DNA of 64,000 nucleotides, taken from Minisyncoccota bacterium (GTDB lineage: Bacteria > Patescibacteriota > Minisyncoccia > Phycocordibacterales > UBA9973). Where the stretch lies: assembly GCA_035353995.1 (NCBI GenBank), contig DAOQAL010000002.1:28729-92728 (forward strand), written 5' to 3'. Positions 6,178-7,712 of the stretch are shown here, one piece after another. A program made the translations under genes and the position numbers. Under the pieces are notes generated by a model. That model was given only the letters and a program-made list of their open reading frames with translations, did not search any database and was not told the origin of the DNA. Position 1 is the stretch's first letter; each line of letters opens with the position of its first letter.

Positions 6178-7712
<1,535 letters not shown>

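Follow-up and report, generated by a model that had tools for sequence, protein, structure and literature searches.

How does a ribosome select start codons when the 3′ tail of its 16S ribosomal RNA (rRNA) has no anti-Shine–Dalgarno (anti-SD) sequence, and what still holds the sequence of that tail in place? Both questions are raised by the 16S rRNA gene (rrs) in a 64,000-nucleotide stretch of contig DAOQAL010000002.1 (hereafter the window), part of a tiny metagenome-assembled genome (MAG) that sequence comparison assigns to Candidatus Paceibacterota (Parcubacteria/class Minisyncoccia, within the candidate phyla radiation, CPR). Here, the anti-SD has been lost from the rRNA gene itself. The explanation that we consider likely is that the window comes from an old subclade without an anti-SD, in which translation initiation is independent of Shine–Dalgarno (SD) sequences and largely leaderless, while the tail is retained for rRNA maturation. 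The core finding has been known for Parcubacteria since 2022 and the window is one more member of that group; the modest value added here lies in a constrained tail with a trailer hairpin and in a conserved SD-led operon within an anti-SD-less background.

The 3′ end of the 16S rRNA and its distribution

The rrs gene is the sole small-subunit (SSU) rRNA gene of the window (Table 1). An Rfam search of the whole window at E≤0.05 returned this gene and six tRNAs and nothing else; no second SSU, 23S or 5S gene was found in the 64 kb, and no 23S gene follows rrs. The original prediction had called helix 45 clearly identifiable and had placed after it a tail without the CCUCC core. Both statements hold at the positions given. 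Helix 45 is intact, with 10 of 10 pairs standard in the Rfam alignment of the 3′ end, and it differs from the bacterial consensus by several compensatory changes; in the covariance-model alignment of tails, this helix (helix 1) is 99.9% paired across 79 distinct sequences. It is followed by the 13-nucleotide tail GAUUAAUUCAAUU, where the consensus reads GAUcACCUCCUUu and the canonical counterpart after helix 45 is GAUCACCUCCUUU. Two checks had been proposed, one for CCUCC in an extended tail and one for further rrs copies, and neither was found in the window: CCTCC is absent from positions 6101–7940, which span the rrs leader, 16S, trailer and terminator, and there is no second SSU gene.

A helix-45-anchored pattern in which the tail was left free was used on contigs of the Genome Taxonomy Database (GTDB), with one genome per species, and matched at least 120 loci. 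In at least ~85 of the 120 loci listed, helix 45 is exactly that of the window and the tail after it is without CCUCC, and among the matches listed all but one locus with that exact helix lack CCUCC. The lineages represented among these loci are Paceibacterota, Parcubacteria, Nomura-, Kaiser-, Taylor-, Lloyd-, Jorgensen- and Staskawiczbacteria, Minisyncoccus archaeiphilus and Microsyncoccus; the closest 16S among them belongs to a Minisyncoccia MAG (92.8% identity), the next being at ~82%. One window protein is identical to the Candidatus Paceibacterota entries HNW71794.1 and HPT18185.1. An exact match to the window tail together with its next seven bases occurs in 52 metagenome contigs, the 16S of which is 82–95% identical to that of the window, and an identical tail is also present in several GTDB genomes. 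The 16S rRNA of M. archaeiphilus (locus L027) likewise lacks CCUCC and ends GGAUCAUUUAUUUAUA; this organism is cultured and has a complete genome with one copy of each rRNA gene (PMC12281837). Thirty-eight full-length 16S sequences were placed in a neighbour-joining (NJ) tree, where those with anti-SD-less tails group in one large clade that comprises three families of tails. The window groups with Taylor-, Kaiser-, Nomura- and Staskawiczbacteria and Minisyncoccus, and CCUCC is kept in Magasanikbacteria, Saccharibacteria and the non-CPR sequences.

Anti-SD loss had been described as rare. This is correct for bacteria as a whole, in which it was recorded for 128 taxids of ~20,600 with assessable 16S 3′ ends (Amin 2018, PMC6107228), but not for this clade, where the database scans and earlier work make it the normal state. 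Tsurumaki et al. (2022, RNA 28:1041; PMC9297842) detected CCUCCU in only 48% of Parcubacteria, the members without it overlapping with the group that lacks uL1, and reported three to four S1 domains in bS1 of most CPR bacteria. The window shares with their Parcubacteria the clade (Paceibacteria/Minisyncoccia), the loss of CCUCCU and a bS1 of this size; the rplK-rplA region, where uL1 would be encoded, lies outside the 64 kb. However, that study scored only presence or absence of the motif, and the replacement sequence, its conservation, the hairpin, promoter geometry and residual SDs are not described there. Beyond this paper, a literature search turned up nothing specific on how Patescibacteria use SDs or leaderless mRNAs, nor on a hairpin between the anti-SD and the trailer of pre-16S rRNA.

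Start regions and promoter geometry

Within the window, 59 genes were called as non-overlapping open reading frames (ORFs) from the first start codon. Fifty-six or 57 of them lack an SD, and only three reach a duplex energy of ≤−6 kcal/mol with the canonical tail, one of which (60397) probably has a wrong start. The mean duplex energy with the canonical tail is −1.87 kcal/mol upstream of genes versus −3.64 kcal/mol at random sites within coding sequences, indicating that SD-like words are depleted before genes and not enriched; for these 59 genes, this is the outcome of the proposed check for SD enrichment upstream of starts. The original prediction had described the 15 nucleotides upstream of secA, murE, gyrA, clpB, typA, rpsM, rpsK, rpsD and rpoA as A/T-only and free of SD motifs. 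None of these genes has an SD, but "A/T-only" was an overstatement, as the last 15 nucleotides before several of them contain C or G. Across the 59 genes the 30 nucleotides before starts are A/T-rich and G-poor (~7% G at −13 to −1), and 40-nucleotide start segments fold more weakly than internal segments (−1.75 vs −3.34 kcal/mol, p=4e-8). The start codon is ATG in 57 of the 59, and bS1 is the short four-domain form that had been noted (Table 1). The earlier wording "fully SD-independent" must be softened: almost no gene has an SD, but one leadered operon keeps conserved strong SDs.

Two further regularities of the start regions were observed. T occupies position −1 in 44 of the 59 window genes and in 89 of 162 genes of relatives with the same tail, which fits the preference of transcription start sites for a pyrimidine at −1 and a purine at +1. 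The commonest second codon is AAA (14/59).

The position of promoters relative to start codons was analysed using a −10-like hexamer defined as TAnnnT with at least five of six matches to TATAAT. Such a hexamer ends exactly 6 nucleotides before the ATG in eight genes, compared with 0.92 ± 0.97 in dinucleotide shuffles (maximum 5 in 1000), and is found at this distance from 0.8% of internal ATGs. All eight genes start with ATG, and a hexamer ending 6 nucleotides upstream would make the A of this codon position +1. When distances of 5–9 nucleotides are considered, 15 genes have a hexamer versus 4.3 expected, several with an extended TG element and a reasonable −35. For the genes at 4737 and 55544, transcription starts had been placed 0–8 nucleotides from the ATG, and the leader lengths implied by the promoter scan agree (Table 1). 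This promoter geometry predicts that many mRNAs are leaderless or near-leaderless.

The same arrangement recurs beyond the window. Among 162 genes adjacent to 16S genes with an identical tail (41 loci), a −10 hexamer lies 6 nucleotides before the start in 24, and an SD is present in ~3–4%. In the CPR and other loci listed, the peak at 6 nucleotides comprises 17 of 143 ORFs next to CCUCC-bearing 16S and 35 of 396 next to CCUCC-less 16S, and SD-like words at −15 to −6 are infrequent near both. Because loci that keep CCUCC display the same −10 peak, leaderless promoters do not appear to be a response to anti-SD loss. Leaderless, SD-poor initiation is probably older than that loss, and is the probable circumstance that made the anti-SD dispensable.

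Several observations concern individual genes. Two divergent genes lie 24 nucleotides apart (38606–38629), their predicted −10 boxes overlap and each box is 6–8 nucleotides from its ATG. The gene directly upstream of the 16S (4737–5849) is deoxyhypusine-synthase-like (Pfam DS domain, PF01916); its longest ORF begins at TTG 4641, and promoter geometry favours ATG 4737. Between infA and rpsM lies rpmJ (L36, 36 amino acids; 55886–55996), which the default ORF list omits because of its short length, and a terminator-like hairpin (55841–55867) is situated between infA and rpmJ.

The tail, its trailer hairpin and the rrs transcription unit

The consensus of the five bases that follow GGAU in 80 distinct CCUCC-less tails is Y-A-W-U-U, at 0.9–1.9 bits per base; the first 5–8 nucleotides are conserved and information falls to ~0 bits by position 17. 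The end of the tail can form a four-base-pair hairpin with the first bases of the trailer. In CCUCC-bearing relatives its arms are CUCC/GGAG with a loop of 4–6 nucleotides (e.g. CACCUCCUUUCUGGAG), and in the derived lineages they are UUCC/GGAA or UUCA/UGAA, the window having the latter. Pairs were counted with an alignment-free test and with a covariance-model alignment, as the MAFFT alignment of the tails was ungapped and out of register. In the alignment-free test, all four pairs were present in 52 of 108 distinct tails versus 8.8 when trailers were shuffled and 25 when they were exchanged between sequences. When 100 sequences were aligned to the covariance model, pairing over the four pairs reached 95.8%, a value inflated by the fitting of the alignment to the model, compared with 30–49% in controls with a slid partner; the covarying pair types were UA55/CG16 and AU24/CG22/UA4. 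The switch between A-U and C-G is scattered over the NJ tree and needs at least two or three changes. Thus, the tail appears to be still under selection and not drifting freely, and the hairpin appears to have been kept by compensatory changes.

The mature 3′ end predicted by homology coincides with the junction between the loop and the 3′ arm of the hairpin, and it is from this coincidence that a role in 3′-end maturation is inferred. The hairpin is most likely a determinant of pre-16S 3′-end maturation. Such a role agrees with the processing defect in Flavobacterium johnsoniae, where ablation of the anti-SD impairs 16S processing independently of translation (PMC13000453). In a milder form, it may be the ancestral anti-SD:trailer hairpin, and not SD pairing, that still constrains the tail, so that a normally masked maturation role is exposed.

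The rest of the transcript is also structured. The 16S is enclosed by a leader–trailer helix of 24–25 base pairs, and rrs forms a stand-alone transcription unit unlinked from 23S and 5S, as in most relatives examined, with a structured trailer of ~155 nucleotides. A conserved trailer element with a long hairpin (Table 1) recurs with covarying stems and a CUC-NNNN-GAG top in relatives whose tail is identical or related, and may be a processing signal. A pairing of the tail with the top of this hairpin, CUCAAUUGAG, was considered and rejected, as this sequence is the palindromic end of a long stem, closed by an NNNN tetraloop, and does not covary with tail type. Pre-rRNA helices of the same kind enclose the 16S in E. 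coli (PMC10250234, PMC11404451); the window differs from these known systems in its stand-alone rrs with its own terminator and in the extra hairpin joining the tail to the first trailer bases.

Residual SD motifs, competing explanations and known systems

A leadered operon of two adjacent genes, encoding an SPFH/Band-7 protein and a membrane-protein partner, carries perfect SDs (Table 1). Its GC content is raised and its GC content at third codon positions (GC3) is the highest of the window (0.289, z=+2.5). The closest homologues of the operon are all from Patescibacteria, at ≤51% identity, and the gene order ClpB-IF2-RbfA-tRNAs-TIG-SPFH-partner-pilins-SBP-methyltransferase-GyrA is kept in seven relatives (L121–L127) of 33–50% GC, in which SPFH identity is 31–47%. 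A recent foreign origin of the operon is not supported as a simple explanation by these homologues and this synteny. In the relatives and the window together, GGAG, GAGG or AGGA occurs at −22 to −4 in 15 of 17 operon genes versus 9 of 146 neighbours (Fisher p=2.6e-13); with a stricter motif in five AT-rich loci the counts are 8 of 9 and 1 of 100 (Fisher p=2.1e-10). The motif varies among lineages in form and position, and the C-terminal peptides that overlap it show no conservation, so that selection appears to act on the nucleotides. Other genomes with CCUCC-less 16S also have strong, well-spaced SDs before a minority of genes (near the 16S genes of L013, L019, L027, L046, L069, L077, L095, L103, L163 and L165), more commonly in higher-GC lineages. 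These genes are mostly accessory: purC (in Minisyncoccus), guaA, a DUF4015 glycosyl hydrolase, GGDEF, GNAT and hypothetical proteins.

Two observations concern the surroundings of the operon. Five tandem paralogous small membrane proteins (30489–32922) resemble pilins of type IV secretion systems (TrbC/VirB2-like), and such pilin-like paralogues adjoin the SPFH operon in all syntenic relatives. A protein with an IS200-like Y1 transposase domain (PF01797; 27912–28541, minus strand) lies between gyrA and the methyltransferase gene and is absent at the matching position in the syntenic relatives.

The residual SDs could be passive relics, either because their genes came recently from donors that use SDs or because decay is incomplete, and we rate this as quite possible, if somewhat short of an even chance. 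The accessory nature of most SD-led genes near CCUCC-less 16S, their greater frequency at higher GC and the raised GC and GC3 of the SPFH operon are as expected of relics. However, the operon stands in conserved synteny across seven diverged relatives, and a neutral relic should have decayed, whereas the motif is kept in almost all relatives beside neighbours that lack it.

Alternatively, a vertically inherited leadered operon may have kept GGAGG-type motifs that are read or exploited by a factor other than the 16S tail. SPFH-type mRNAs would then still be initiated through recognition of the motif by another RNA segment, a ribosomal protein or a trans-acting factor, or the motif would be a regulator site. 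This proposal is an addition to SD-independent, largely leaderless initiation and not a replacement for it; we think it unlikely, but if it were true the SPFH motifs would mean that SD-like sequences can be read or exploited by something besides the 16S 3′ tail. It draws on the SDs of 8–10 nucleotides at canonical spacing before both genes, on the consensus promoter and ~94-nucleotide 5′ untranslated region (UTR), unlike those of the leaderless neighbours, on the 15 of 17 operon genes with the motif, on the apparent selection at the nucleotide level, and on the strong SD of purC in M. archaeiphilus, whose single rrs lacks CCUCC. Against it, no candidate reader was found in the window, whose non-coding CCUCC sites all lie antisense either to the SD or to the trailer of rrs; the contigs of the syntenic relatives carry no rrs with which their SDs could be compared; and the high GC3 is compatible with recombination from an SD-using relative. 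Moreover, weak pairing with GGAG or GGAA is still within reach of the UUCC-type tails found in sister lineages, and the motif could then be a relic in this one.

That the tail GAUUAAUUCAAUU and A/U-rich upstream motifs such as UUGAAUUAA form a co-evolved variant pair is very improbable. Duplexes in the window are slightly more stable than in dinucleotide shuffles (z=−2.2) and a few good matches exist, for example ttgaattaa 9–12 nucleotides before the ATG at 49114, but the matches are mostly palindromic, low-complexity AATTAA/ATTAAT with no sharp positional peak, and 5- and 6-mers complementary to the tail are not enriched at −20 to −1 in the 162 genes of the 41 identical-tail loci. An alternative SD complementary to the new tail was therefore rejected, there being no enrichment in the window or in these genes. 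In earlier work, SDs were likewise missing from organisms that have no anti-SD, and no pair of variant SD and variant anti-SD made up for them (Amin 2018, PMC6107228; Lim 2012, PMC3457768).

Finally, the missing anti-SD could be an artefact: the assembly could be wrong, the gene could be a pseudogene, or CCUCC could be carried by another rrs copy or lie further downstream in a longer tail. We regard this as scarcely credible: although only 64 kb of the genome are covered, an exact 39-mer of the window tail and its own trailer had no match in the metagenome collection, and CCUCC or CUCCUCC lies within GC-rich hairpins 20–30 nucleotides into the trailers of L077, L043 and L105, the window's gene encodes a full-length, fully paired SSU rRNA, assembly error is excluded by the identical tail in 52 independent metagenome contigs, to which several GTDB genomes can be added, M. 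archaeiphilus has its single CCUCC-less rrs in a complete genome, and the absence of SDs matches that of the anti-SD. With no CCTCC from the rrs leader and promoter region to the terminator, an anti-SD displaced into a longer mature tail was rejected for the window; it may exist in the L077, L043 and L105 lineages.

We therefore return to an anti-SD-less subclade with SD-independent, largely leaderless initiation, for which the following course is proposed. SD use would have faded first, and the anti-SD would then have been lost under relaxed selection, the CCUCC sequence decaying to an A/U-rich one, probably through replacement of C by U or A in register (CACCUCC to UAAUUCA). Most CPR bacteria have lost Era, whose binding site is GAUCACCUCC (PMC10582724), and a further constraint on the tail may have gone with it. 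Ribosomes of this lineage would be unable to use SD pairing. Many promoter-proximal genes would be translated from leaderless mRNAs, with the −10 ending 6 nucleotides before the A of AUG; leadered and operon-internal genes would rely on unstructured, G-poor, A/U-rich start regions together with the four-domain S1, short or overlapping intergenic junctions would allow coupling or re-initiation, and start codon use would be almost exclusively AUG. The ancestral anti-SD:GGAG hairpin would have been preserved through compensatory changes as a likely determinant of 16S 3′-end maturation.

Several points weigh against this explanation. All that is said here on the mature end of the 16S, on transcription starts and on the mode of translation is prediction, the rrs copy count covers only 64 kb of a MAG, and the 59 gene calls are uncurated. 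Matches to sigma-70-like promoters are no more numerous in this AT-rich DNA than in shuffles, and only their positional peak is significant. In the NJ tree, which is without support values, the CCUCC-retaining L061 nests within the anti-SD-less clade. Regarding the hairpin, besides the inflated pairing value, the window's own version (4 base pairs, 3-nucleotide loop) is not stable when folded alone (z=+0.94), and the leader–trailer cofold prefers another pairing over it. A conserved SD-led operon is also an ill fit to a ribosome wholly blind to SDs.

A parallel is found in the "SD-blind" ribosomes of Bacteroidia such as F. johnsoniae (PMC13000453), which share with the window SD-less genes, A-rich starts and few strong SDs; the F. 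johnsoniae tail has a part in pre-16S processing that does not depend on SD pairing, a property that the window's tail may have in common with it. In Bacteroidia, however, the anti-SD is retained and hidden by bS21, bS18 and bS6, whereas in the window CCUCC is gone from the gene; the genes for bS21 (rpsU), bS18 and bS6 are not within the 64 kb. The SD-led gene of Bacteroidia is rpsU, under autoregulation, and that of the window is the SPFH gene with its membrane partner. Some Flavobacteriia, Mycoplasma, Carsonella and Hodgkinia (PMC3457768, PMC6107228, PMC10783764) resemble the window in having lost the anti-SD without having SDs or a variant SD. These belong to other phyla and many are extreme endosymbionts, with tails that in Hodgkinia vary even between rrs copies, unlike the derived tail of the window, which is conserved across a deep, species-rich, free-standing clade. 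A promoter element positioned for transcription to begin at or beside the AUG, with a strong preference for AUG, is shared with Mycobacterium, Deinococcus, haloarchaea, Sulfolobales, Nanoarchaeia and mammalian mitochondria; the anti-SD has also been lost in Nanoarchaeia and mitochondria, whereas Actinobacteria and Deinococcus keep a functional one, and leaderlessness in the window is predicted from promoter geometry.

By itself the window adds one more genome to the phenomenon described in 2022 and changes little. The clade, in contrast, is a natural experiment in translation without any anti-SD, being species-rich and having a cultured member with a single rrs. It makes testable how start sites are selected where no SD pairing can occur, which function the 16S tail has besides such pairing (which appears, in line with the 2026 Flavobacterium result, to be pre-16S 3′-end processing) and why a few mRNAs keep perfect SDs. 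In practice, gene finders, start prediction based on ribosome binding sites and annotation of 16S 3′ ends will misbehave on these genomes.

Table 1. Coordinates of the rrs locus, predicted promoters, the SPFH operon and bS1 in the window.
Feature	Position	Strand	Remarks
16S rRNA gene	6177–7712	+	Rfam RF00177, 1362.5 bits, model positions 1–1533, full length
Helix 45	7676–7699	+	strands 7676–7685 CACGGGUAGC and 7690–7699 GCUGCUCGUG; loop GGAA 7686–7689; cmscan alignment
13-nucleotide 3′ tail GAUUAAUUCAAUU	7700–7712	+	no CCUCC core; 3′ end placed by homology only
Tail–trailer hairpin UUCA-AUU-UGAA	7706–7716	+	arms 7706–7709 and 7713–7716; comparative evidence only
Leader strand of leader–trailer helix	6145–6168	+	cofold; exact complement of 7868–7891
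Trailer strand of leader–trailer helix	7868–7891	+	cofold; exact complement of 6145–6168
Conserved trailer element CUUAUUGAGUCGGUAUUG / GAGUCGGUAUUG with long hairpin topped by CUC-AAUU-GAG	7746–7785	+
Intrinsic-terminator-like hairpin and U-tract	7901–7931	+	end of rrs transcript
TGnTATAAT −10 box	8462–8467	+	6 nucleotides before ATG at 8474; predicted leaderless
Other −10 hexamers 6 nucleotides before ATG	16695–16700, 16994–16999, 28635–28640, 38618–38623, 39925–39930	+
Other −10 hexamers 6 nucleotides before ATG	35681–35686, 62881–62886	−
Overlapping −10 boxes	38614–38619 (−), 38618–38623 (+)	− and +	would be a face-to-face leaderless promoter pair
Promoter-like TTGCAA-16-TAAAAT (TG)	4701–4728	+	8 nucleotides before ATG 4737; leader ~2 nucleotides
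Promoter-like TTGACC-17-TAGTAT (TG)	55504–55532	+	11 nucleotides before infA ATG 55544; leader ~5 nucleotides
SPFH/Band-7 gene and membrane-protein partner operon	33029–34881	−	leadered
SD-led genes of the operon	33664–34752, 33029–33667	−	adjacent; perfect SDs ggaggaggtgtattATG and gaaggaggtaaaaaATG
Operon SDs	GGAGGAGGUG 34757–34766; GAAGGAGGU 33673–33681	−
Operon promoter TTGACT-17-TATACT	TTGACT 34876–34881, TATACT 34853–34858	−	5′ UTR ~94 nucleotides (predicted)
bS1	19660–20757	−	365 amino acids; four S1 domains (Pfam PF00575 ×4)

Elsewhere in the window, the 547 nucleotides upstream of secA (10400–10946) contain no long ORF and have no Rfam match; within them lies an extremely basic ORF of 35 amino acids (10776–10883), MQVRRNTNKQKNKMAAKKKAKKTTKKAKKTTKKRA.

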